A stretch of DNA of 64,000 bases from a virus (lineage: Duplodnaviria > Caudoviricetes), in the IMG/VR virus record IMGVR_UViG_2799112583_000005, positions 6,192 to 70,191 of that record, one strand, 5' to 3'. This document shows, one piece after another, positions 1 to 30,884 of the stretch. The position numbers and the translations under genes are program-made. Within the stretch, counting starts at the first letter, position 1, and the number at the start of each line of letters is the position of its first letter. The notes beneath the pieces are model-generated. The model saw only the letters and a list, made by a program, of their open reading frames with translations, had not been told where the DNA came from and searched no databases.

Positions 1-2
1 AG

Positions 3-383
3 CTTATAGACGGCGTGCCGCGCATGTACGGGGTGGACGTCGGCTACCGTGTGCCGCTTTTCGATCTCGAGGTCTCGCCCGAGCGCGCAAGTCCCTATTC
101 GCGCATGAGCCAGAATGAGCTCGCCCTGCAGTTTTATAACGCCGGCTTTTTTAACCCTCAGCGCGCCGACCAGGCGCTCAGCTGCCTGCAGATGATGGAT
201 TTCCCGCACAAGGAGGAACTGATGAACGCGATCCGCCAGCAGGCCGAGGCGTACGGCGCTTCGCTCGAGAGCTCGGCGAGCGGTGCTGCACTCGGCATGC
301 GCGGCCGCCGGATCGAGTTTCCCAAGCGCAGCAGAGAGGAGCGCGCCCGCGAGATGGCCAGTGAGAGCGCGACGCCGCGCTGA
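3..383 (+). CDS. 3' end of phage portal-like protein (gene starts before the window)
   Basis: Frame open from window start; C-terminal SPYSRMSQNELALQFYNAGFFNPQ..DQAL.CLQMMDF resembles clostridial portal C-termini; lies directly upstream of protease, scaffold and capsid. Confidence 0.65.
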   Translation, partial: LIDGVPRMYGVDVGYRVPLFDLEVSPERASPYSRMSQNELALQFYNAGFFNPQRADQALSCLQMMDFPHKEELMNAIRQQAEAYGASLESSASGAALGMRGRRIEFPKRSREERAREMASESATPR

Positions 384-421
384 GCGGCGATACGCGGCAC
401 AATGCTGCGAGGAGGTTTTTC

Positions 422-751
422 GTGATCGACGTTCACTGTCTGTCGCGGCCGGAACAGGGCCTGTATGCCCTGTGCATCCGGGGACATGCGTGTTACGCGC
501 CGTACGGGGCTGACATCGTCTGCGCCGCCGTCAGCACACTGGGCTATACCTTCGCTGCCGCGCTGCAGCGCCTTTACAGCGAGGGCGCGCTCAGTGCTCC
601 GCCCCAAATCCGAGAGAGGGAAGGATTCCTTTGTGCTCTGGGGCGCGCTGATCCGGCGCACAACGCGGTGCTCGCCCAGACCTATGAGACCGTGATGACC
701 GGACTGATGCTCCTTGCAGAGAGCTATCCAGAGCACATCCGGCTGCGGTGA
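422..751 (+). CDS. prp: Prp/YsxB-family cysteine protease (ribosomal-processing protease family)
   Basis: His-Cys dyad motif GHACYAPYGADIVCAAVS; 109 aa; RBS GGAGG upstream. Confidence 0.85.
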   Translation: MIDVHCLSRPEQGLYALCIRGHACYAPYGADIVCAAVSTLGYTFAAALQRLYSEGALSAPPQIREREGFLCALGRADPAHNAVLAQTYETVMTGLMLLAESYPEHIRLR

Positions 752-824
752 GAGCAGGCAAAGCACTGGAGGCCTGTTCCGACAAATATTTTCTCGTCCG
801 CTAACGGACGGAAAGGAGCCAACT

Positions 825-1715
825 ATGTTTGAAGTATCCATGCTTCCCTTGCATCTGCAGTTGTTTGCCGACGGCGGAGACGGGGGAAGCGCGGGCAGCG
901 CCCCTGCCGCCGCCGGGCAGGGGGAGGGCGGCGATGCCGCTGAGGCCGTGTCCGAAGGGCTGGCCGCCGCCCCGTCCTCTGCGCCGCTGACGGAGCAGCA
1001 GCGCGAGGAGATGTTTCGCGCCCTGATCAAAGGCGAGTACAAGGATCTCTATGAACGCGAGATCCGTCGTTTGCTCCAGAATCGCTTCCGCCATTCCGAC
1101 GCGAAGCTCAGACGTCTGGAGGCCCTCTCCCCTCTGCTCGACAGGCTGTGCGCGCGCTATGGCGTGGATCCGGGGGATGTCGAGGGACTCCGGCGCGCGC
1201 TGGATGCCGAGGATGCGCAAGCGGCAAAGCCCCGCCCCGCCGAGGGGCACAGCGAGGCGGCCGAGGCCGCCGGAGAGAATGCCGCCGATGAAGCCGAAGT
1301 GGATTTTACCGCGAGCGATGCGCGCGGCGATCAGCAGGAGGACGTGAGCGGGGCCATCGTGTCGGCCTGGCTTTCTCAGGCAGAGGCACTGCGCGAGACC
1401 GTGCCGGATTTCGACTTCTCACGCGAGAGCGCCAACGAGGATTTCACGCGCCTTCTGGCCGCGGGGCTGCCGGTGGAGACGGCCTATGAAATCGTGCACC
1501 GCGACGAGCTTCTGGAGAGCGGGATGCGCTATGCGGCCCGTGAGACCGAGCGGCGCCTCCTCGGTGCGCTCTCTGCGCGCGTCGGCCGCCCCGGCGAGAA
1601 CGCACTGAGCAGCAGCGGAGCCGCACTTGTCAAGTCCGACCCGCGCAGCATGACAAAGGCCGAGCGCCGCGAGATCGCCCGCCGGGCGATGCGCGGGGAG
1701 AAAATTACTTTCTGA
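825..1715 (+). CDS. Phage capsid scaffolding protein with N-terminal LQLF|A leader
   Basis: RBS GAAAGGAG before ATG 825; MFEVSMLPLHLQLFADGG; acidic/helical; C-terminal RRAMRGEKITF; immediately upstream of capsid. Confidence 0.75.
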   Translation: MFEVSMLPLHLQLFADGGDGGSAGSAPAAAGQGEGGDAAEAVSEGLAAAPSSAPLTEQQREEMFRALIKGEYKDLYEREIRRLLQNRFRHSDAKLRRLEALSPLLDRLCARYGVDPGDVEGLRRALDAEDAQAAKPRPAEGHSEAAEAAGENAADEAEVDFTASDARGDQQEDVSGAIVSAWLSQAEALRETVPDFDFSRESANEDFTRLLAAGLPVETAYEIVHRDELLESGMRYAARETERRLLGALSARVGRPGENALSSSGAALVKSDPRSMTKAERREIARRAMRGEKITF

Positions 1716-1759
1716 GTGATCCATCCTCGAAAAAATCAATTCATGAAGGGAGCAACGCA

Positions 1760-2752
1760 ATGAATCCTATCCTTGATCTGCAGCATTTTGCCGTACAGGT
1801 GACCACGCAGGAGAGCCTGTCGAGCGAGATGAAAACCTTTTATGACCTCACGTTGATCGACGAGGCCGGCGCCAATCTTGTGCACGACCAGTTCGCGCAG
1901 AAACGCCCGATCCCGGCCGGACAGGGCAAGACCATTGAGTTCCGTAAGTTCGCGGCCCTGCCCAAGGCCACCACGCCGCTGACCGAGGGTGTCACGCCCG
2001 ACGGCCGGGCGCTCACTGTCAGCACCGTGACGGCCACGGTCAACCAGTACGGCGACTATATCACGCAGTCCGACGTGCTGGAGCTGACGGCCGTGGACAA
2101 CACCGTGCTCGAGGCGACAAAGCTCCTGGGCCGCCAGGCCGGTCTGACACTCGACACCGTGACACGCAATGTGCTGCAGAGCGGCACCAACGTCATGTAC
2201 GCCGAAAAATGGGTCAACGGTGAGGCCGTTGAAGTCACCTCGCGCGACGGGCTCGACAGCAGCGCGGTGCTGACGGTCGAGCTTGTGCAGCGCGCGGTCG
2301 CCAACCTGCGCGCGCTCAACGCCCCGACCATCGACGGCAGCTACATCGCCATCATCCATCCCTACGCGGCCTACGATCTGATGCGTGACAGCGAGTGGAT
2401 CGACGCCAACAAGTACGGCTCGCCCGAAAACCTCTACGAGGGCGAGATCGGCCGTCTGGCCGGTGTCCGTTTTGTCCAGACCAGCGAGGCGAAGATCTAT
2501 AAGAACGCCGCAAACCTCGCCGTATTCGGCACGCTGTTCCTCGGCGCCGAGGCCTACGGCACCACCGAGATCGAAGGCGGCGGACTCGAGACCATCGTCA
2601 AGCAGAAGGGCTCGGCCGGTACCGCCGACCCGCTCGATCAGCGCTCGAGCGTGGGCTGGAAGGGTCTCAAAACCGCCGAGATCCTGATCCCTCAGTACCT
2701 GATCCGTGTGGAGAGCGCCAGCAACAAGTTCAGCACGGCGGCTGAAAACTGA
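1760..2752 (+). CDS. N4-gp56-family major capsid protein
   Basis: 330 aa; GQGKTIEFRKF, PLTEGVTP, NQYGDY, YEGEIG, DPLDQRSSVGWK motifs typical of this family; N-terminal LQHF|A. Confidence 0.85.
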   Translation: MNPILDLQHFAVQVTTQESLSSEMKTFYDLTLIDEAGANLVHDQFAQKRPIPAGQGKTIEFRKFAALPKATTPLTEGVTPDGRALTVSTVTATVNQYGDYITQSDVLELTAVDNTVLEATKLLGRQAGLTLDTVTRNVLQSGTNVMYAEKWVNGEAVEVTSRDGLDSSAVLTVELVQRAVANLRALNAPTIDGSYIAIIHPYAAYDLMRDSEWIDANKYGSPENLYEGEIGRLAGVRFVQTSEAKIYKNAANLAVFGTLFLGAEAYGTTEIEGGGLETIVKQKGSAGTADPLDQRSSVGWKGLKTAEILIPQYLIRVESASNKFSTAAEN

Positions 2753-2779
2753 TCAAAGACGGATTGGAGGAACGATTCG

Positions 2780-3010
2780 ATGGCTGAAAAGAAAAATCCT
2801 GTCTCTCCCGAGGAGGAGAAGCTTGTCCGTCTGCGCATCCCGCGTGAGCGCAGCGACCAGGAGGATGTGTTCGTGCGCGTCAACCAGCGCACCTGGCAGA
2901 TCCAGCGCGGCGTCGATGTCGAGGTCCCGGCCTGTGTGGCCGAGGTGCTGCGGCACCGCGAGGAGATGTTGGACGTGATCTGGGAGTTCGAAACGAAGAA
3001 CGCCAAGTGA
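2780..3010 (+). CDS. Small protein following the capsid gene (possible head accessory)
   Basis: RBS GGAGG; DVFVRVNQRTWQIQRGVDVEVP pattern; position after capsid. Confidence 0.6.
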   Translation: MAEKKNPVSPEEEKLVRLRIPRERSDQEDVFVRVNQRTWQIQRGVDVEVPACVAEVLRHREEMLDVIWEFETKNAK

Positions 3011-3146
3011 TCCCGGTTTTTCAAACCGGGAAAAGGAATACACAAAACGATCGCGGGGCGGTCGGGTTCAGTACCGGAAAAATCCGAGCGCCCCTGCACT
3101 TCGGAAAGGCGGAAAAGGCGGGCTGACGTGCAGCGAATCTTTAGTC

Positions 3147-3175
3147 TTGTATCTATCGGAAAAAATTGTTATAAT
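3147..3175 (+). promoter_or_regulatory. Sigma70/SigA promoter for the DHHW-MBOAT operon
   Basis: TTGTAT-17 bp-TATAAT with extended -10 TG. Confidence 0.7.
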
Positions 3176-3213
3176 CTAACATTATAAAATTAACAACCGA
3201 TGGGAATGAGACA

Positions 3214-4587
3214 ATGAAAAAGAAAGCGGCTTTTCTGTTAAGCTATTTATGCCTGTTATCACTCTTCTGCATTGGCGCGGCTGAGCTGCTGCTGGTGGAC
3301 AAATCCGAGCGCGTCAGCGAAAGCGAGAAGCGCCTGCTGCAGGGCTTCCCGGCACTGTCGGCGGAGAGCGTACTGTCCGGCCGCTTCATGGGGGAGTTCG
3401 AGACCTTTCTCTCCGACGGCTTCTTTTTCCGTGAGGAGAGCTCAGACTTCAACGCCCGTCTGCTCGGGCTGTTCGCTCTGCCGGACGACGGGCCGGAGAC
3501 CGGTGTAGTTGCCGAGGATCGACTGTGGGAAGAGCCAGCGGAGGAGCAAGAGCCGCTCTCTGACGAGACGACAGACGAAGGGATGCCCGCGCTCGCTGAC
3601 ACACAGGCCGCGCTGCCGACAGAGGCCCCTGAGAATGCCGTGCTTCCGCCGGAGGAGACGAGTGCCGCCCAGCCGCTGCGCACAGCCGAGCACGACGGCT
3701 CGCTCTGGCTGACGACGGCGGACGGGGGGCGGGAGGTCCTGTTTACCTATCCGGCCGCGTCCCTGACGAACATGGCCGATATTCTGAATCGATTCCGCGC
3801 GGAGCTCGGCGCGGACGGACAAGTGTTTTTCCTCAACCCCCAAGTGTCCGAGGTGTACCGCAATATCGTGAAAAAAGACCGTTATGTCGGCTGGGGCAGC
3901 GATGTGGCGGATCTGATGCAGCCGCTTGCGGACGAGGGCGTGACGATCCTCGATGCCTGCGAGCTGCTGACGCCGTATATCGGCCAGGAAAACCTGTACC
4001 CGATGGCGGATTACCACTGGCACCCGATCAGCGCCAGTCTGACGGTGGATGCGCTGATGTCCCTGCAGGGGTTTCCGGCGGTGGACTATGGGCAGTACCG
4101 CTATCATCTGTCCACGATGCCTTACAACAAGGCCGTGACGCGGGAGACGCTCAGCGGTATGCGCTACGGGCGTGACGTGATCGAGATCATGGAGCCGGTC
4201 ACCCCGGCGCACAGCTATTTCCTTGACCATCTGACGAACCGGCGCGACGGCTTCTTTATCAAGTTCCCGGCCGGCTATGACGCCTACCTTGGCGGCCATT
4301 TCGGCCCCTGGCGGCTGATCGAAACGGGCTTCCACACAGGCCGCACGGCGCTCTTTGTCGGCGATTGCTTCACCCCGCCGATGATGACCTATATAGCGCC
4401 GTATTATGATCAGATCATTTCCACCGACGTGCGGCGGCTGTTCTACTCGCAAAAGGATGCCGGCGGCAGCATTGCCGACTATATGGCGGCCTATGGGGTA
4501 GATGACGTGTATATCGTCTACAGTACAAACTCCATGGTCTGGGACAACGACTTGCAGACCAAGCTGCGTACCTATCTGTACGAATAA
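3214..4587 (+). CDS. DHHW-family (AlgJ/AlgX-like) periplasmic O-acyltransferase partner
   Basis: N-terminal membrane anchor, SGRFMGEFETFLSDGFFFRE, DYHW motif; adjacent to MBOAT. Confidence 0.75.
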   Translation: MKKKAAFLLSYLCLLSLFCIGAAELLLVDKSERVSESEKRLLQGFPALSAESVLSGRFMGEFETFLSDGFFFREESSDFNARLLGLFALPDDGPETGVVAEDRLWEEPAEEQEPLSDETTDEGMPALADTQAALPTEAPENAVLPPEETSAAQPLRTAEHDGSLWLTTADGGREVLFTYPAASLTNMADILNRFRAELGADGQVFFLNPQVSEVYRNIVKKDRYVGWGSDVADLMQPLADEGVTILDACELLTPYIGQENLYPMADYHWHPISASLTVDALMSLQGFPAVDYGQYRYHLSTMPYNKAVTRETLSGMRYGRDVIEIMEPVTPAHSYFLDHLTNRRDGFFIKFPAGYDAYLGGHFGPWRLIETGFHTGRTALFVGDCFTPPMMTYIAPYYDQIISTDVRRLFYSQKDAGGSIADYMAAYGVDDVYIVYSTNSMVWDNDLQTKLRTYLYE

Positions 4588-4599
4588 GGGGGCGTCGGC

Positions 4600-5994
4600 A
4601 TGGTTTTTTCAAGTTTGAGCTTCCTGTTCCTGTTCCTGCCGCTGTTGTATCTGCTGTATTTCATCATCCCCAATCTGCGCTGGCGCAACGGCGTGCTGGT
4701 TGCAATGTCGCTGTTGTTTTACGGCTGGGGCGAGCCGGTGTGGATCCTGGCGATGCTGTTTTCCACACTGGTCAACTACTTCTGCGCCCGTACTGTGACG
4801 CGAATCGCGGATGTGCGCCGGCGCCGCCTGGTGCTGACGCTCGGTGTGCTGGCCTCGGTCAGTTTTTTGGCCTATTTCAAGTATGCGGCCTTCTTTGCCA
4901 ACAGCTTTGCCGCGCTCTTCGGCAGCGCCTGGCGTATGAGCGAGCCGCGCCTGCCGATCGGCATTTCGTTTTATACCTTCCAGGTGCTGACCTACACCGT
5001 GGACGTCTACCGCGGAAAGGCCGAAGCGCTGGATTCTCCGCTGGATCTGCTGCTGTATGTCAGTTGTTTCCCGCAGCTGATCGCCGGCCCGATCGTCCAG
5101 TATGCCGACATTGCACCGGAGCTGCGGCAGCGCGCGGTGCTGCCCGACGACTTTGCCGACGGTTTCAGGCGTTTCGTCAAAGGACTTGCCAAAAAAGTGC
5201 TGCTGGCAAACCTCTGCGGTCAGGCACTTGAGGAGCTTGCGCTCGGACAGGCGGGCTGGACCGTCGTCGGCGCGTGGCTGGGCGCGTTTCTCTATGGGCT
5301 GCAGATCTACTTCGACTTTTCGGCCTACTCGGATATGGCGATCGGCCTCGGACGGACGCTGGGCTTCCACTACAAAGAGAACTTTGATTTTCCCTTTGCC
5401 TCTCAGACCGTCGGCGAGTTCTGGCGGCGCTGGCACATGTCACTGGGAGCGTTTTTCCGCGATTACGTATACATCCCCCTCGGCGGCAGCCGCTGCAGCA
5501 CGGCCAGAGCAATCTTCAACACACTGTTCGTCTGGCTGCTGACAGGTCTGTGGCACGGCGCCAACTGGAACTTTGTGCTTTGGGGACTTTATTTTGGGGT
5601 AATACTGCTGCTGGAGCGCTATGTGCTGAAAAAAGCGCTCAAAAGAGCGCCGAAGCTGCTGCGTCTCGGCTGGACCTCGCTGCTGGTGCTGATCAGCTGG
5701 GTGATTTTCTATGAGGTGGATCTGGGGCAGATGGGACGGCATCTCACCGCGCTTGTCGGCCTGGGCGTGACGGGCTGGATCGACGATACAGCGCGCACGG
5801 TGCTGCGCACTTGGACGCTGTTCCCGCTGCTGGCCTGGCTGCTGAGTCTGCCGACGGTACCGGCTATCCAAAAGCGTCTGCCGAAAAAGCTCGGCGAGGC
5901 GTTCGGCATGGTGCTGACGCCGCTGCTGCTGGGCGTTTCTGTCGTCTTTCTGATCGGACAGAGCTATAATCCGTTTATTTATTTTCGGTTTTAA
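4600..5994 (+). CDS. MBOAT-family O-acyltransferase (AlgI/DltB-like)
   Basis: MVFSSLSFLFLFLP, LPIGISFYTFQ, FPQLIAGPI, FWRRWHMSLG, LWHGA, YNPFIYFRF. Confidence 0.92.
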   Translation: MVFSSLSFLFLFLPLLYLLYFIIPNLRWRNGVLVAMSLLFYGWGEPVWILAMLFSTLVNYFCARTVTRIADVRRRRLVLTLGVLASVSFLAYFKYAAFFANSFAALFGSAWRMSEPRLPIGISFYTFQVLTYTVDVYRGKAEALDSPLDLLLYVSCFPQLIAGPIVQYADIAPELRQRAVLPDDFADGFRRFVKGLAKKVLLANLCGQALEELALGQAGWTVVGAWLGAFLYGLQIYFDFSAYSDMAIGLGRTLGFHYKENFDFPFASQTVGEFWRRWHMSLGAFFRDYVYIPLGGSRCSTARAIFNTLFVWLLTGLWHGANWNFVLWGLYFGVILLLERYVLKKALKRAPKLLRLGWTSLLVLISWVIFYEVDLGQMGRHLTALVGLGVTGWIDDTARTVLRTWTLFPLLAWLLSLPTVPAIQKRLPKKLGEAFGMVLTPLLLGVSVVFLIGQSYNPFIYFRF

Positions 5995-6012
5995 CCGTGA
6001 AAGGCAAGCCAT

Positions 6013-7476
6013 ATGGAACAAAACCAGACAATCAATCTTCGCGCGGCGGTTATGGGGATGCTGCTGGCAGCGACGCTCGTATTTGCAGCGGCGGTGTACG
6101 GCGGTATCCGTCTTAGGCAGGAATTGCCGAGATGGCGGATCGAACGGGTGGAGGCTGCAATCAACGCGGGTGACACCGCGGCTGCCCGGCAGCGGATCGA
6201 GCGGCTGGATGACGACACACAGCGCAGCCTCTATCTTCCGCAGTGCGACTATATCGACGGCAAGACGCTGCTGGAAGCGGGCGATACCGTATCTGCCCGT
6301 GCGGCATTTGCCGCAGCCGGGGACTATCTCGACGCATCCGACATGGTGAAGCAATGTGACTACGCCTCTGCGGAAGCGCTGTACAGCCGTGGCGACTGGA
6401 CGGGCGCGCTGGAGGCCTTTCGCGCGCTCGGCGCTTACGCCGACGCAGCCGACCGCTGCAGCGACTGCCGTTACCGTATGGCCGAGAGTGCGGCCGACAG
6501 CGGCAGCTGGGAGGAGGCTGCTGCGATCTTTTCGGAATTGGGGGATTACGCCGACGCGCGTGAGCGCTTGACCGAGATCGCCCGGAGCGTCACCGGCCTT
6601 TCCGATGGCCAGGAGGCGCTGGCTGCCTTTAACGGCATGGGCCGTGAGAATGTGGAACTGAATCTTCGTATGAATACGCGCCGTGCCCAATTGAGCCAGG
6701 AGAGTATCGCTGTTGGCTTTTATCATACGGTGGGGCTCGCCGCTGACGGCACGGCTCTGGCCTGCGGCGACAACAGCTACGGTCAGTGTGATGTGGCCGG
6801 TGAGAGCAATCTGAAGGCTGTGGCGGCCGGCGCCTATCACACACTGCTGCTGCGCGCCGACGGAACGGTCCGCGCGGTAGGACGCAATGAAGAAGGCCAG
6901 TGCGAAACGGCTGCATGGAGAGATGTGGTCACCGTGGCGGCCTCCAACTATGCAAGCTTTGGTCTGACCGCCGACGGGCACGTCCTGTGCGCAGGCTTCG
7001 GAGATTTTGCCGAGGTCGAGAGCTGGAGCGGTATCGCGCAGCTTGCCGGAGGCTCGTATAACCTGGCCGGACTGCGCGCCGACGGCACGGTATGGGTCTG
7101 GCCGTCGCTTCCCGGCAGTGAGGTGCTCAACGGCGCGGCGCGCGTCGCTGTCAACAGCGGCTTTGCTGCCGCCGTGTTGCCGGACGGATCGCTATGCTGC
7201 ACTGCCCCTGGCTTGCCGGAAGGGCAGGGACTCGTCAGTCTGTCGGTCTCGGGCACCTGTGTGCTCGCACTCGACGCCGACGGTCAGATCCTGCCGCACT
7301 TTTTCCGTGCAGGCGATGCCTATGACCTCTCCGCGGTCCGTGACGCGGTGGCCGTCGCTGCCGGCGGAACCCACAGCGCGGTTGTCTATGCCGACGGCAG
7401 CACCGCAGTCTTCGGCCGCACCGAGGAAGGGCAGGGGAACACCGCCGCCTGGCGTCTGAAGGTCAACGAAGACTGA
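6013..7476 (+). CDS. Membrane-anchored protein with TPR-like repeats and RCC1/BLIP-II-like beta-propeller
   Basis: GDY.DA repeats, then AVGFYHTVGL..DGT..ACGDNSYGQC and AAGAYHTLLLRADGTV..VGRNEEGQC repeats. Confidence 0.75.
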   Translation: MEQNQTINLRAAVMGMLLAATLVFAAAVYGGIRLRQELPRWRIERVEAAINAGDTAAARQRIERLDDDTQRSLYLPQCDYIDGKTLLEAGDTVSARAAFAAAGDYLDASDMVKQCDYASAEALYSRGDWTGALEAFRALGAYADAADRCSDCRYRMAESAADSGSWEEAAAIFSELGDYADARERLTEIARSVTGLSDGQEALAAFNGMGRENVELNLRMNTRRAQLSQESIAVGFYHTVGLAADGTALACGDNSYGQCDVAGESNLKAVAAGAYHTLLLRADGTVRAVGRNEEGQCETAAWRDVVTVAASNYASFGLTADGHVLCAGFGDFAEVESWSGIAQLAGGSYNLAGLRADGTVWVWPSLPGSEVLNGAARVAVNSGFAAAVLPDGSLCCTAPGLPEGQGLVSLSVSGTCVLALDADGQILPHFFRAGDAYDLSAVRDAVAVAAGGTHSAVVYADGSTAVFGRTEEGQGNTAAWRLKVNED

Positions 7477-7501
7477 AGCTTTCAATAGTATCGGGAGGAA
7501 T

Positions 7502-8245
7502 TTGATGTCAAAAATCCAATCCGCCGTTGCTCTGGCGGTGGAGATGGCGAACGATCCCACGCACGGCTACAGCCAGATAAACCGCTGGGGGCCGGACTAC
7601 GATTGTTCAAGCTTTCTGATCCACGTCTGGCAGACGGCCGGCGTGCCGGTGCGTGACGCGGGCGCGAGCTACACCGGCAACATGAAGGCGGCCTTTCTGG
7701 CCTGCGGTTTTGCCGACGTGAGCACCTTTGTCAACCTTGCCACCGGCGAGGGCTGTATGCCCGGGGATATCCTGCTCAACGAGCGCAATCATGTGGCCAT
7801 GTCGCTCGGCCACGGGCAGATGGTCTGGGCCAGCACTTCCGGCGGCCATCCCGAGCCGGGCGACCAGACCGGCCGCGAGATTCGCACCGGCGCGTTCTAT
7901 TCGTTTCCCTGGGACTGCTGCCTGCGCTATCTTGCCGAGGATGCCGACGCGCCGGAGGAGGATGAGGTTCCCGGCGAGACTGTGCCGGGCGATACCGTCC
8001 CGCCCCCGAGTGCTGCCGGCGGCCTGACTATTCGCACGCTGCGCCGCGGTATGACCGGCGAGGATGTGCGCGCGCTGCAGCTGCTGCTGATCGGGCGGCG
8101 CTGCTCCTGCGGCCCGGACGGCGCCGACGGGGATTTTGGCCCCAATACGCTCGCCGCTGTCCGCAGCGCTCAGCGGCACTATCAGCTCACGGTCGACGGC
8201 GAGGCCGGACGCGATACGCTTGGCGCGCTGCTGACGAGAGCATAA
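7502..8245 (+). CDS. NlpC/P60-type peptidoglycan hydrolase with C-terminal PG-binding domain (chromosomal, lysin-like)
   Basis: GYSQ.NRWGPDYDCSS catalytic Cys, NHVAM His; C-terminal LRRGMTGEDVRALQ..L..DGDFGPNT. Confidence 0.85.
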   Translation: MMSKIQSAVALAVEMANDPTHGYSQINRWGPDYDCSSFLIHVWQTAGVPVRDAGASYTGNMKAAFLACGFADVSTFVNLATGEGCMPGDILLNERNHVAMSLGHGQMVWASTSGGHPEPGDQTGREIRTGAFYSFPWDCCLRYLAEDADAPEEDEVPGETVPGDTVPPPSAAGGLTIRTLRRGMTGEDVRALQLLLIGRRCSCGPDGADGDFGPNTLAAVRSAQRHYQLTVDGEAGRDTLGALLTRA

Positions 8246-8311
8246 TATCCCGCAAGAGTTTATACGCACGCGCCGCGGCTCGCCCGCGGCGCGTGTGTCC
8301 GTATTTTCTGC

Positions 8312-8340
8312 TTGCAATTTCCCGGAAAGTACGGTATACT
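8312..8340 (+). promoter_or_regulatory. tRNA promoter
   Basis: TTGCAA-17 bp-TATACT, 13 bp upstream of tRNA. Confidence 0.7.
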
Positions 8341-8353
8341 GCATCAGTAATAT

Positions 8354-8439
8354 GCCGGTGTGATGGAATGGTAGACGTGACGGACTCAAAATCCGTTGGT
8401 GGCGACACCGTGTGGGTTCGAGTCCCACCACCGGCACCA
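8354..8439 (+). tRNA. trnL: tRNA-Leu(CAA)
   Basis: Acceptor GCCGGTG/CACCGGC, D-loop TGGTAGAC, anticodon arm ACGGA-CTCAAAA-TCCGT, long variable arm, T-loop GTTCGAGTC, encoded CCA. Confidence 0.97.
8414..8439 (+). repeat. attL core (26-bp direct repeat, tRNA 3' end)
   Basis: GGGTTCGAGTCCCACCACCGGCACCA identical to 59564-59589. Confidence 0.95.
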
Positions 8440-27949: not shown

Positions 27950-30884
27950 TCTATTTGCCAAGTTATCCTTAGATTCAAGTGAATATGAAAGAGGGCTTGC
28001 CGAGGCAAAGGGTAGCGCCACAAGCGCAGGCAGCGGAATTGGAAACGCACTGAAAACAGGCGTTAAAGTGGCCGGCGCCGTGCTTGCGGCCGCTGGTACC
28101 GCTGTCGTCGCTTTTGGTAAAACGTCTGTTAATGCCGGTGTGCAGTTTGACACCGCTATGTCCCAAGTCGCCGCGACCATGGGCAAGACCGTTGAGGAGC
28201 TCGTGCAGAGCACAGGGACTGCCGAGACGTCGTTCGGACACTTTGAAGGCAATCTCCGAGATTTTGCACAATTCCTTGGTGCCAATACAGCCTTTTCAGC
28301 AACGCAAGCCGCCGAGGCTCTAAACTATATGGCCCTCGCCGGGTATGACGTGCAGCAGAGCATGGATATGCTGCCGAATGTGCTCTCCCTTGCCGCTGCC
28401 GGTAACTTTGACCTTGCCAGAGCCTCGGATATGGTGACCGACGCTCAAACAGCGTTTGGCATCAATGCGGGGCGCACAACGCAGATGGTCGATGAGATGG
28501 CGAAAGCGGCATCGACTGGCAATACGTCAGTTGAACAACTCGGTGATGCTTTCCTCGTGGTCGGCGGTCTTGCGCAAGAGCTGAACGGCGGTCTTGTTAC
28601 CTTGGCAAATGGAACCACAACTTCAGTTGATGGACTGCAGGAACTCGAGATTGCATTGACAGCCATGGCAAACGCTGGCGTGAAAGGCAGCGAAGCCGGC
28701 ACGCACATGCGGAACATGCTGCTGAAACTGTCCTCACCGACAAAGGAAGGACGGGAAGCGTTTGAGGCGCTCGGCGTGTCTGTCTTTGATGCCAACGGGG
28801 AAATGAAATCCCTTGAGGAAATCTTCGGGGATTTGAATAGAGCCATGTCCACCCTCACGCAGGAGGAAAAGATACAGGCTATTTCCGACATCTTCAATGT
28901 CCGCGATGTTGCTTCTGCCGAAGCGCTGCTCAATGCGGTGGGCCAGGACTGGAACAAGATCGGCGCAGCAATCCTTGACGCGCAAGGCGCGGCCGCACAG
29001 ATGGCGGCAACACAGCTTGACAACCTTGCCGGCGATATGACCCTGTTTCAGTCAGCGCTTGAAGGAGCAAAGATCGCAATATCCGACAGCCTGACACCTA
29101 CGCTGCGTAACTTTGTTAAGTTTGGCACGTCAGCCGTTTCTGAGCTCGGAACAGCGTTCAAAGAGGACGGGCTACAGGGCGCCTTGAATGCTCTTGGCCC
29201 TGTCATCAATCAGGGCGTCGAGCTTATCTTCTCGGCACTTCCGAATGTCTTGAACGCCGCGACGAGTTTGCTGACTTCTTTTGGCTCTGCCATAATCCAG
29301 AACCTCCCGAAACTTATCCCTGCTGGCATTCAGATCGTTACAACGCTTGTGGCGTCACTCGTTTCCGGCTTCCCAGAATTGCTGTCGTCAGCAACTCAAA
29401 TAATCAAGCAGATCTCGGATGGAATCATGCAGGTTCTTCCGCAGCTCATACCGGCTGCAATTCAGATTATATCCACTCTTGGGCAGGGGATTATGACGAT
29501 GCTCCCGGAACTCGCAACATCAGCGATTGACATGATCTCTACGCTGACCAAAGGGATCCAGGAAAATCTCCCGCAGCTTATCCCGGCAGCAATGAACGCT
29601 ATCATGCAATTCTCAGGTTCGCTGCGCGAGAACTTCGGGAATATTGTGGACGCCGGCTTGCAGCTGATTATGACGTTGGCTGACGCTTTGATTCAGAATT
29701 TGCCGGTCTTCATCGAGACTGTTCCGACCATCGTTTCCAATATTGCCGGACTAATAAACGACAACGCGCCGAAGCTACTTGAAAGCGGCATCCAGCTGAT
29801 CATTCAGCTTGTTGCCGGAATTGTCCAGGCGGTCCCGACGCTTATCGCGGAATTTCCCAAGATCATTCGAGCCATTTTCGACGTGATCACTGCGGTCAAC
29901 TGGATCAATCTCGGCGGAACTATCATCACCGGAATAAAAAACGGCATTTCCGGACTGGCAAAAAGTGTGCCGGAAACGCTTAAAAAAATCGGCGAAGAGG
30001 CACGAGATTGGCTTAAGGCAATCGACTGGAAAACTCTCGGCGCTGACATTATCGACCTGATCAAAATAGGAGTGCAGTCGCTTATCAATGTGATTCCGAA
30101 CCTTCTGAAAAGCATTGGAGCGACAGCAGTGAAACTGTTTAAGGAAATCGATTGGCTCGATCTCGGCATCAATGTTATCAATGGCATTGTCGCGGGGCTG
30201 AACGGCATTTCTAACTTCCTGTGGGAGGCTATCAAGGCAATAGGGCAGGGGATTATAGATGGATTCAAGGGCATCCTTGGAATCCATAGCCCCTCTACCG
30301 TTATGGCAGAACTCGGCAAATATCTAATCCTCGGCTTTATAAACGGCATCAGCGAAAAAGTCGGTGCAATAACTGAGCAGATCAAAAACCTGACCGGATC
30401 GATCAGCAATATTTTCAGCAACCTCGGCAGTAGTGCTGCACAATGGGGCCGCGATCTGATCGGGAATTTTGTCGACGGCCTGAACCAGAAGCTGCAAAAC
30501 CTGAAAGACAAAGCCGTCGGTATCGCACAGCAGATCAAAGATGTTATCGGCTTCTCGGAACCGAAAGAAGGCCCGTTGTCGAATTTCCACACCTATGCGC
30601 CGGATATGATGGAACTGTTTGCAAAGGGCATTCGGGACAATGAGAACCTCATTACGGACGCAATCAGCAGCAGTTTCAACTTGCACGACCAGATCGGCGC
30701 GAGTTTCAACGGCGGGCGCGTGGTCAGCAGTGGAGCGCCGCGCAGCATTTCCGGCAGCAACGGCAACACGACCGTTATTTTGCAGGTTGACCGCACTGAG
30801 CTTGGCCGCGTGGTTTTCCAGCTCAACGATGAGGAGACGCAGCGCGTTGGCGTCCGTCTCGCTACGGGAGGAGCTTACGCATGA
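27930..30884 (+). CDS. Tape measure protein
   Basis: About 985 aa; TP901-like core (FSATQAAEALNYMALAG, QLDNLAGD..LFQSALEG); amphipathic repeats; GIHSPS. Confidence 0.92.
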   Translation: MAFSVFDLFAKLSLDSSEYERGLAEAKGSATSAGSGIGNALKTGVKVAGAVLAAAGTAVVAFGKTSVNAGVQFDTAMSQVAATMGKTVEELVQSTGTAETSFGHFEGNLRDFAQFLGANTAFSATQAAEALNYMALAGYDVQQSMDMLPNVLSLAAAGNFDLARASDMVTDAQTAFGINAGRTTQMVDEMAKAASTGNTSVEQLGDAFLVVGGLAQELNGGLVTLANGTTTSVDGLQELEIALTAMANAGVKGSEAGTHMRNMLLKLSSPTKEGREAFEALGVSVFDANGEMKSLEEIFGDLNRAMSTLTQEEKIQAISDIFNVRDVASAEALLNAVGQDWNKIGAAILDAQGAAAQMAATQLDNLAGDMTLFQSALEGAKIAISDSLTPTLRNFVKFGTSAVSELGTAFKEDGLQGALNALGPVINQGVELIFSALPNVLNAATSLLTSFGSAIIQNLPKLIPAGIQIVTTLVASLVSGFPELLSSATQIIKQISDGIMQVLPQLIPAAIQIISTLGQGIMTMLPELATSAIDMISTLTKGIQENLPQLIPAAMNAIMQFSGSLRENFGNIVDAGLQLIMTLADALIQNLPVFIETVPTIVSNIAGLINDNAPKLLESGIQLIIQLVAGIVQAVPTLIAEFPKIIRAIFDVITAVNWINLGGTIITGIKNGISGLAKSVPETLKKIGEEARDWLKAIDWKTLGADIIDLIKIGVQSLINVIPNLLKSIGATAVKLFKEIDWLDLGINVINGIVAGLNGISNFLWEAIKAIGQGIIDGFKGILGIHSPSTVMAELGKYLILGFINGISEKVGAITEQIKNLTGSISNIFSNLGSSAAQWGRDLIGNFVDGLNQKLQNLKDKAVGIAQQIKDVIGFSEPKEGPLSNFHTYAPDMMELFAKGIRDNENLITDAISSSFNLHDQIGASFNGGRVVSSGAPRSISGSNGNTTVILQVDRTELGRVVFQLNDEETQRVGVRLATGGAYA

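Follow-up and report, generated by a model that had tools for sequence, protein, structure and literature searches.

Why should a bacterial chromosome keep an intact set of phage head genes with no tail genes beside them? The question is raised by the first lines of a 64,000-nucleotide stretch of DNA, hereafter the window (positions 6,192 to 70,191 of IMG/VR record IMGVR_UViG_2799112583_000005; C47:15009-79008 of G000, the window's own genome, a 3.04-Mb assembly of 161 contigs), which opens with the end of a portal gene followed by genes for a protease, a scaffold-like protein, a major capsid protein of the N4-gp56 family and a conserved 76-residue protein (small76). We show that these genes are one half of a system divided between two places in the genome of a Faecousia species, with head and packaging genes on contig C47 and tail genes on contig C109, and that the gene content, the split and a motif common to both halves are conserved in a sister species, where the genes have evolved under purifying selection. 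The two loci probably encode a domesticated, podovirus-derived particle system resembling FpGTA of Faecalibacterium prausnitzii, and their gene content suggests that this system may act as a gene transfer agent (GTA).

The five head genes in the window are all open and full length by comparison with their homologues (Table 1), in agreement with the preliminary description of this DNA; the portal gene begins upstream of the window, at about C47:13361-13463. The Prp-type cysteine protease is, by its family, likely the head maturation protease. The scaffold-like gene, found between protease and capsid genes in all relatives, has its probable start at position 825, giving the N-terminus MFEVSMLPLHLQLF|ADGG. 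The scaffold N-terminus thus reads ..LQLF|A and that of the capsid protein ..LQHF|A, and motifs of this type are those that Prp proteases cut. The module had been thought to consist of the head genes only. However, the first 8.4 kb of the window are the right-hand part of a 14.6-kb locus for head, packaging and endolysin functions (C47:8818-23447), which runs on upstream to TerL, TerS and a repressor switch; the 15 kb ahead of the window start with host genes (Dus, an FMN/FAD reductase and a carboxylesterase). Neither an integrase nor a full prophage with tail genes was found in this upstream DNA. The GC content of the head locus (0.63-0.65) is closer to that of the upstream host genes (0.59-0.71; genome mean 0.58) than to that of the neighboring prophage (0.50-0.57), as had been judged by eye. 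The earlier suggestion of a nanocompartment finds no support, because portal, TerS and TerL genes stand immediately upstream, whereas an encapsulin is an HK97-fold shell without portal or terminase.

Homology searches found no neck or tail homologue anywhere on C47. When the genes that follow small76 in related elements were used as tblastn queries against the genome of the window, however, they matched a different contig, at C109:29330-35449. The order there is a host pyridoxal phosphate (PLP)-dependent enzyme (PALP), a gene in the adaptor position (phrog_12105), and genes for a 587-residue protein (phrog_511), a 263-residue protein, a 531-residue tail protein (phrog_372), a 306-residue protein and a holin, past which lie host genes for polysaccharide synthesis. 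The 587-residue protein, modeled from 19 homologues (mean pLDDT 88.7), retrieved P22 gp10 in a fold search (8eap_D, E 5e-14), then T7 gp12 and Sf6 gp8, and as modeled it matches the tail hub or nozzle of podoviruses of the P22-gp10/T7-gp12 kind; neither the nozzle nor the 531-residue tail protein gave a useful match when its sequence was searched against the PDB. Within G000, head genes occur on C47 only and tail homologues on C109 only, and should the contigs be adjacent, the loci would still be separated by at least 15.6 kb. The head module is therefore tail-less on its own contig, as first described, but not in its genome.

The split is confined to G000 and one other genome, G082. About 95 related loci from the genus Faecousia, from the order and from public genome contigs were compared, tail contiguity being judged where the flank was sufficient and tail homologues were detectable, and head and tail were contiguous wherever this could be judged, in the order TerS-TerL-portal-Prp-scaffold-capsid-small76-adaptor-nozzle, further genes, 306-residue protein, holin and lysin. 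In these contiguous relatives, whose capsid proteins are 50-76% and nozzles 25-55% identical to those of the split element, small76 is always the final gene ahead of the adaptor, and none has after it the DHHW-MBOAT-RCC1 genes that follow in the window. No further head-only copy of the capsid lineage, such as a possible FpGTA homologue, came to light in an order-wide search aimed at such copies. In the nearest relatives in the databases, which are fecal-virome scaffolds, the genes after capsid and small gene are phrog_12105, phrog_511, tail proteins, holin and lysin, and the nearest capsid of a cultured phage is that of the Bacillus podoviruses Page, Pascal and Pony (34% identity over 92% of the length), which differ in being complete phage genomes of about 40 kb. 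Relatives of the capsid protein in IMG/VR, on contigs of up to 44 kb, reach at most 75% identity (73% at full length), so that the split lineage is not represented there. Since the capsid lineage occurs in IMG/VR and the protein database on contigs of 40-47 kb, and since a shorter contiguous element also exists, the family spans true phages, reduced one-block elements and the two-block form. The shorter element (G015:C4:110700-128100; L220, L035, L222) is a contiguous 17.4-kb relative with a helix-turn-helix (HTH) repressor, TerL, portal, scaffold, capsid, adaptor, nozzle, tail genes and lysin; it has neither integrase nor replication genes, its host flanks are SbcCD/transglutaminase-like genes and AraC/EamA/amidohydrolase genes, and, by its gene content, it may be a one-block domesticated form. 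A relative on G003:C1 has the same left flank.

Both halves of the split element lie behind the same promoter-like motif, ACAGCGC[CG]GGGGATTTCG[AG]T, 14 nt, TGCTA[TA]NCTGTCA, with 16 nt from the GGGGATTTCG core to TGCTA. It stands 90 nt before the TerS start (C47:11401) and 57 nt before the adaptor start (C109:29282); the pattern GGGG[ACT]TTTCG-N15-17-TGCTA, like its stricter form GGGG[AC]TTTCG-N16-TGCTA, has just these two sites in the 3.04-Mb genome, and the motif is kept in G082 at both orthologous places. We read TGCTATCCT and TGCTAAGCT as extended -10 elements; the upstream half of the motif may be a site for an activator or for an alternative sigma factor. The motif was not found in the contiguous relatives examined, which have almost no spacer ahead of the adaptor gene, and it would seem, therefore, that the tail locus has gained its own copy of the late signal. 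An operator-like repeat, GTGTC[AT]TTTACG, is present in three copies within C47:9441-9860 (locus L003), which occupy the interval from the CI-like repressor to the Cro-like gene and the DNA directly ahead of the RecE-like gene. The repeat is not present at the tail locus, and co-regulation of the two loci thus rests on the late motif and not on repressor sites. The split may have arisen by complementary deletions in two related copies, G082 having a further, complete copy to this day, or by transposition of the block.

Is the divided system maintained, or is it in decay? G082, a metagenome-assembled genome (MAG) of 310 contigs (record CACXDT01), represents a sister species: its PALP is 90% identical to that of G000, as against at most 74% among the 166 other species, and among the 168 genus species genomes it alone has a capsid protein more than 76% identical. 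One of its contigs carries TerS-TerL-portal-Prp-scaffold-capsid-small gene-DHHW-MBOAT-RCC1-lysin-tRNA at 80-83% nucleotide identity, another carries PALP-adaptor-nozzle-263-531-306-holin at 81.5% (flanks 85%), and the CI-Cro-RecE part is on a third, short contig. The tail locus lies within the same host flanks in both species; the head locus is bounded on the right by the same tRNA-Leu, while on its left synteny is not kept. Pairwise codon analysis of 19 element genes in G000 and G082 found all 19 open and full length in both species, with dS (synonymous substitutions per site) of 0.31-1.03 and ratios of nonsynonymous to synonymous substitution (dN/dS) of 0.07-0.32, as compared with dS of 0.45-0.52 and dN/dS of 0.14 in the flanking host genes. 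When the same 18.7 kb were allowed to drift neutrally in simulation, by 0.3-0.5 substitutions per site, 130-175 premature stops appeared and at most 2 of the 19 genes remained open. It follows from this difference and from the low dN/dS that purifying selection has acted on the genes ever since the two species parted, and hence while the loci were already split. Both loci are inherited with the host chromosome in the two species compared, and the proposal that the head module is host-domesticated and kept under selection is borne out: its orthologues are restricted to two sister species and are not pseudogenized.

These results bear directly on a simpler view, that the loci are two prophage remnants, unrelated or complementary, which make nothing, and of which only the repressor (for immunity) and DHHW-MBOAT (for surface modification) matter to the host. 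Such a view would accommodate the lack of detectable integrase and replication genes, the restriction of the element to 2 of 168 species and the presence inside the block of a cargo cassette with its own promoter. It does not explain why every structural, packaging and lysis gene has kept its reading frame in the two species, why at a dS of about 0.3-1.0 their dN/dS (capsid 0.071, TerL 0.11, 263-residue protein 0.084, nozzle 0.125) is no higher than that of the cargo genes, or why the two loci are exactly complementary and have in common a motif otherwise absent from the genome, and we regard it as improbable. That the arrangement is an artefact of assembly or binning, with chimeric junctions or with head and tail contigs from different organisms, is a concern with assemblies of 161 and 310 contigs. 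However, the small76-DHHW, RCC1-lysin and PALP-adaptor junctions all recur in the independent assembly of the other species, the first of them also in the metagenome contig ODAI012557745, and both loci diverge from G082 to the same degree as the host flanks do, which leaves an artefact with next to no probability.

A second alternative starts from the siphovirus. A complete siphovirus prophage begins immediately beyond the tRNA-Leu, some 350 bp from the stop codon of the endolysin gene and some 5.5 kb from the last head gene, and the preliminary description had suggested that the head genes might belong to a capsid-forming satellite borrowing its tails. In phage-inducible chromosomal islands that form capsids (cf-PICIs) the satellite half of the definition consists of an integrase, an AlpA-type regulator, a primase-replicase and attachment (att) repeats (PMC10085698). 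The C47 locus resembles these islands in having TerS, TerL, portal, protease and capsid genes and no tail or holin gene, and a possible helper adjoins it. However, no integrase, excisionase, primase or replicase was found at either locus, on C47 or C109, an AlpA-type regulator is also absent, and no att-like direct repeat of at least 11 nt surrounds either locus, except for one chance 11-mer. Moreover, cf-PICIs carry the adaptor or connector in cis and use the tails of a helper, whereas here the adaptor is outside the head locus and travels with its cognate nozzle and a podovirus-type tail set in trans, behind the same motif as the packaging genes. The neighbor itself is not constant: ODAI012557745, an independent metagenome contig, is 97.4% identical to window positions 2921-8439 and diverges exactly at the 3' end of the tRNA, and identity to this strain contig (L132) and to G082 stops at 8439. 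Because the siphovirus is absent from both, where the head locus is kept, it is an insertion that varies among strains, not a partner of the head locus. The host-like dS and the fixed tRNA-Leu position in both species also argue against a mobile island. A satellite is thus very unlikely, even more so than inert remnants, and the borrowing of tails from the siphovirus is not supported. The element does not correspond to an intact temperate prophage either: this would be one excisable genome with integrase and att sites, whereas the genes here lie on two contigs, with no integrase or att site found.

The closest counterpart of the split element is FpGTA, which forms 40-nm particles containing about 9 kb of chromosomal DNA and is encoded by a pair of operons separated by 125 kb (Borodovich et al., Nat Commun 2026;17:2046, PMC12946183). 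FpGTA I comprises TerS, TerL, portal, scaffold and capsid genes and FpGTA II those for fibers, receptor-binding protein, holin and endolysin; the proteomics table (Supplementary Data 2) lists RCH50850 as Prp, RCH50849 (RCH50849.1) as an N4-gp56 family capsid and RCH50846 as a tail nozzle with the PDB match 8eap (PMC12946183). Common to both systems are a Gram-positive gut host of the Oscillospirales, particle genes of podovirus type, a head and packaging operon apart from the tail and lysis operon, and the lack of integrase or replication genes. Compared by family names and PDB match, both have TerL, portal, Prp, an N4-gp56 capsid and a nozzle matching 8eap, and since families and structural match are the same, capsid lineage and architecture are likely the same as well. 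The point of division differs. In FpGTA the nozzle stays in operon I, and the fibers, holin and endolysin are in operon II, whereas here adaptor, nozzle, tail proteins and holin have moved and the endolysin has stayed with the head genes. The head locus described here, unlike that of FpGTA, also has a CI/Cro switch, a RecE-like exonuclease and the DHHW-MBOAT-RCC1 cassette. GTAs of the RcGTA type, from Alphaproteobacteria, likewise consist of domesticated phage particle genes scattered over several loci, inherited vertically and kept by purifying selection, and their lysis genes lie outside the head-tail cluster (PMC12946183, PMC9662315). They differ from it in their siphovirus-like ancestry, unrelated gene families, order-wide conservation and regulation by host CtrA/GafA rather than by a CI-type repressor.

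The split element thus appears to combine phage-derived structural and packaging genes with no means to excise or replicate, one of the marks of a GTA, or viriform, along with inheritance on the host chromosome under purifying selection and particles whose host DNA is too short to include the genes that produce them. Several points nevertheless weigh against a GTA. FpGTA particles have been demonstrated by experiment, whereas the system described here is known from its genes. The conservation observed rests on two MAG species and one strain-level metagenome contig, and 166 further species of the genus were searched for the element without a match, unlike FpGTA, which is near-ubiquitous in its genus. 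TerS keeps an N-terminal HTH (Table 1), whereas the TerS of FpGTA is described as lacking a DNA-binding domain, and packaging may for this reason be site-directed rather than random. The fragmented assembly gives only a lower bound for the distance between the loci. Finally, a CI/Cro switch and a RecE-like gene are ordinary features of prophages.

Some of these points would fit equally a maintained particle with another role, either a PBSX-like killer particle or a device for lateral transduction in situ, in which a pac site in terS would be the starting point of packaging and the adjacent DHHW-MBOAT-RCC1-lysin-tRNA region would be shipped by preference. The evidence for maintenance is the same in both cases; TerS has its HTH, and in one terminator-bounded block the packaging genes are followed directly by the cargo cassette. 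Against this, nothing in the sequence separates such a particle from random packaging of the GTA type, and in FpGTA, the one relative with this architecture that has been studied by experiment, the chromosomal fragments packaged are apparently random (PMC12946183). We hold a role other than gene transfer to be a serious alternative, though a good deal less likely than the FpGTA-like system.

If the two loci do encode an FpGTA-like system, the following course of events can be envisaged. A signal would inactivate the CI/S24 repressor, probably through self-cleavage stimulated by RecA, upon which the Cro-like gene, the RecE-like exonuclease and two small Cys-rich proteins would be expressed. The late promoter of common sequence would then fire at both loci; proheads would be built from portal, Prp-processed scaffold and capsid protein and filled with DNA by TerS and TerL, the short tail would be completed by the adaptor, nozzle and fibers encoded in trans, and lysis would be brought about by the holin of C109 together with the endolysin of C47. 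The packaged DNA would have to be chromosomal, because the element can apparently neither excise nor replicate, and it would be either random, as in a GTA, or run on from a pac site near terS. Somewhat more doubtful than a role other than gene transfer is the possibility that this is a young GTA, of the age of one pair of sister species and caught soon after its head and tail genes separated, which packages from a pac site in terS and preferentially exports the surface-acylation cassette DHHW-MBOAT-RCC1, the lysin and the tRNA-Leu hotspot. A possible origin of such a GTA is complementary deletion in two copies, by which the adaptor gene would have been joined to a copy of the late promoter. 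The system would then be a chromosomal engine of lateral transduction, not a random packager.

GTA-like packaging of bacterial DNA has recently been reported as the commonest form of capsid-mediated DNA mobilization in the human gut Ruminococcaceae and Oscillospiraceae, and FpGTA has so far been the sole element of this kind tied to genes. The split locus would be a second example at the gene level, from a different genus, sampled mostly from animal guts, with the same capsid lineage cut elsewhere. It is notable mainly as a split caught in statu nascendi. Because it has, unlike FpGTA, many unsplit relatives and a copy in a sister species, the steps of its domestication can be read directly: integration and replication genes were lost, heads were parted from tails, a motif came to be common to both halves and a cell-surface acyltransferase cassette was captured. 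For those who call prophages and satellites there is also a caution, as what looks like a "tail-less head island" can be one half of a system that works.

Table 1. Features of the two loci. Plain numbers are window positions, the others contig positions in G000; the last column gives dN/dS between G000 and G082, with protein identity in G082 in brackets.
Feature	Position	Strand	Basis	dN/dS
CI-like repressor (HTH + S24)	C47:8818-9456	-		0.083
Cro-like gene, 63 aa	about C47:9627-9817			
RecE/YqaJ exonuclease, upstream of window	C47:9848-10834			
Two small Cys-rich genes, upstream of window	C47:10837-11368			
Promoter-like motif, upstream of TerS	C47:11401			
TerS	C47:11491-11985		residues 16-40 match PF05225 HTH_psq, E 1.3e-6, 28.5 bits (cut-off 20.4)	
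TerL	C47:11985-13418			0.11
Portal C-terminus, last 126 codons	3..383	+	phrog_156, E 2.9e-11 (window part), 7e-73 (whole gene)	0.16
Prp-type cysteine protease	422..751	+	PF04327 Peptidase_Prp, E 1.3e-16; phrog_4478	
Scaffold-like protein	714..1715	+	phrog_13908, E 6e-62; phrog_2303 scaffold, weak	
Major capsid protein, N4-gp56 family	1760..2752	+	phrog_1357, E 5e-87; NCBIfam TIGR04387, 278.6 bits (cut-off 60)	0.071 (95%)
Small conserved head-module gene, 76 aa (small76)	2780..3010	+	phrog_15239, E 3e-11; synteny	0.125 (92%)
Extended -10 promoter element TGTTATAAT, ahead of DHHW operon	3167..3175	+	read from sequence	
DHHW/AlgX-like SGNH protein, opens acyltransferase cassette	3214..4587	+	PF14286, E 1.7e-7; PF16822	0.195
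MBOAT membrane O-acyltransferase (DltB/AlgI-like)	4600..5994	+	PF03062, E 4.8e-23	
Membrane-anchored tetratricopeptide (TPR) + RCC1-repeat protein	6013..7476	+	PF13540, E 3.9e-30; N-terminal hydrophobic segment	
Endolysin, NlpC/P60-like ELLD domain + PG_binding_1, no signal peptide	7502..8245	+	PF25309, E 1.2e-16; PF01471, E 1.4e-13	0.195
Strong intrinsic terminator closing the block	8264..8298	+	stem of 15 pairs, 12 G-C	
tRNA-Leu(CAA), right boundary of the conserved block	8354..8439	+	ARAGORN	
Tail/holin locus, 6.2 kb, including promoter-like motif at 29282	C109:29282-35491			
Nozzle, 587 aa				0.125
263-aa tail protein				0.084
Holin				0.127

The genes that follow the head module had been described as host genes behind a host promoter, and an extended -10 element, DHHW and MBOAT do follow directly; the element lies in a 203-bp spacer past small76 and has a weak -35, which is why a consensus promoter scan missed it. 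Nonetheless, DHHW-MBOAT-RCC1 and the endolysin belong to the same conserved block as the head genes, DHHW being 80% identical and in the same position in G082. The cassette has its own promoter, yet it is enclosed in the late block that the terminator closes, and 25 nt separate it from the lysin downstream. It may change the receptor for the particle on the producer cell, or it may be a passenger. From its DHHW/AlgX and MBOAT/DltB-like families, it looks like a unit for O-acylation of a glycopolymer or of peptidoglycan; the MBOAT protein scores 144.8 bits against TIGR04091, under the cut-off of 375. The trio with TPR/RCC1 occurs in other Faecousia genomes, including G070 and G026, at 50-67% identity and with other neighbors (the G071 contig stops inside MBOAT), and no relative of DHHW was found in IMG/VR. 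A reciprocal swap, in which DHHW-MBOAT-RCC1 would have changed places with the tail block from the PALP site, was considered and rejected, as the flanks of the trio differ in other genomes. The endolysin is homologous to the lysins that end the contiguous relatives and is 40% identical over 245 residues to that of the G015 element.

In many relatives (for example, G003:C1:115704-116921 and G015:C4:115982-117178) the capsid gene is longer, with 400-430 codons; an insertion near residue 250 adds about 70-100 residues that are absent from the 330-residue capsid of the split element. Lone capsid homologues of 39-43% identity occur in G222:C61 and G196:C2 (loci L212 and L213), both sampled genomes of that genus, with no TerL, portal or tail homologue detected within 8-12 kb. 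A third copy of the same phage family, complete and contiguous, is present in G082 itself (G082:C312:14000-32812, L061), its capsid being 64-66% and its nozzle 53% identical to those of G000.

As for the surroundings of the two loci, the tRNA-Leu(CAA) is an integration hotspot, occupied in G000 by the siphovirus prophage and in the 97.4%-identical strain L132 by different DNA with another lysin-like gene, and by neither in G082. Sequences of 35-100 nt resembling repetitive extragenic palindromes or miniature inverted-repeat transposable elements, at C47:8630-8750 and 6530-6640 (locus L003), recur on many G082 contigs and coincide with G082 contig breaks. Synteny around PALP is not kept in other species, as far as the short loci compared extend. 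Just past the holin of the tail locus there is an insertion of low GC content (0.44; C109:35679-36842, or L008:17680-18843), absent from G082, in which the C-terminal fragment of a MuF protein is fused to a barnase-like ribonuclease domain (PF00545) and followed by two Barstar immunity genes; from its domains, it looks like the orphan tip of a polymorphic toxin with its immunity genes.

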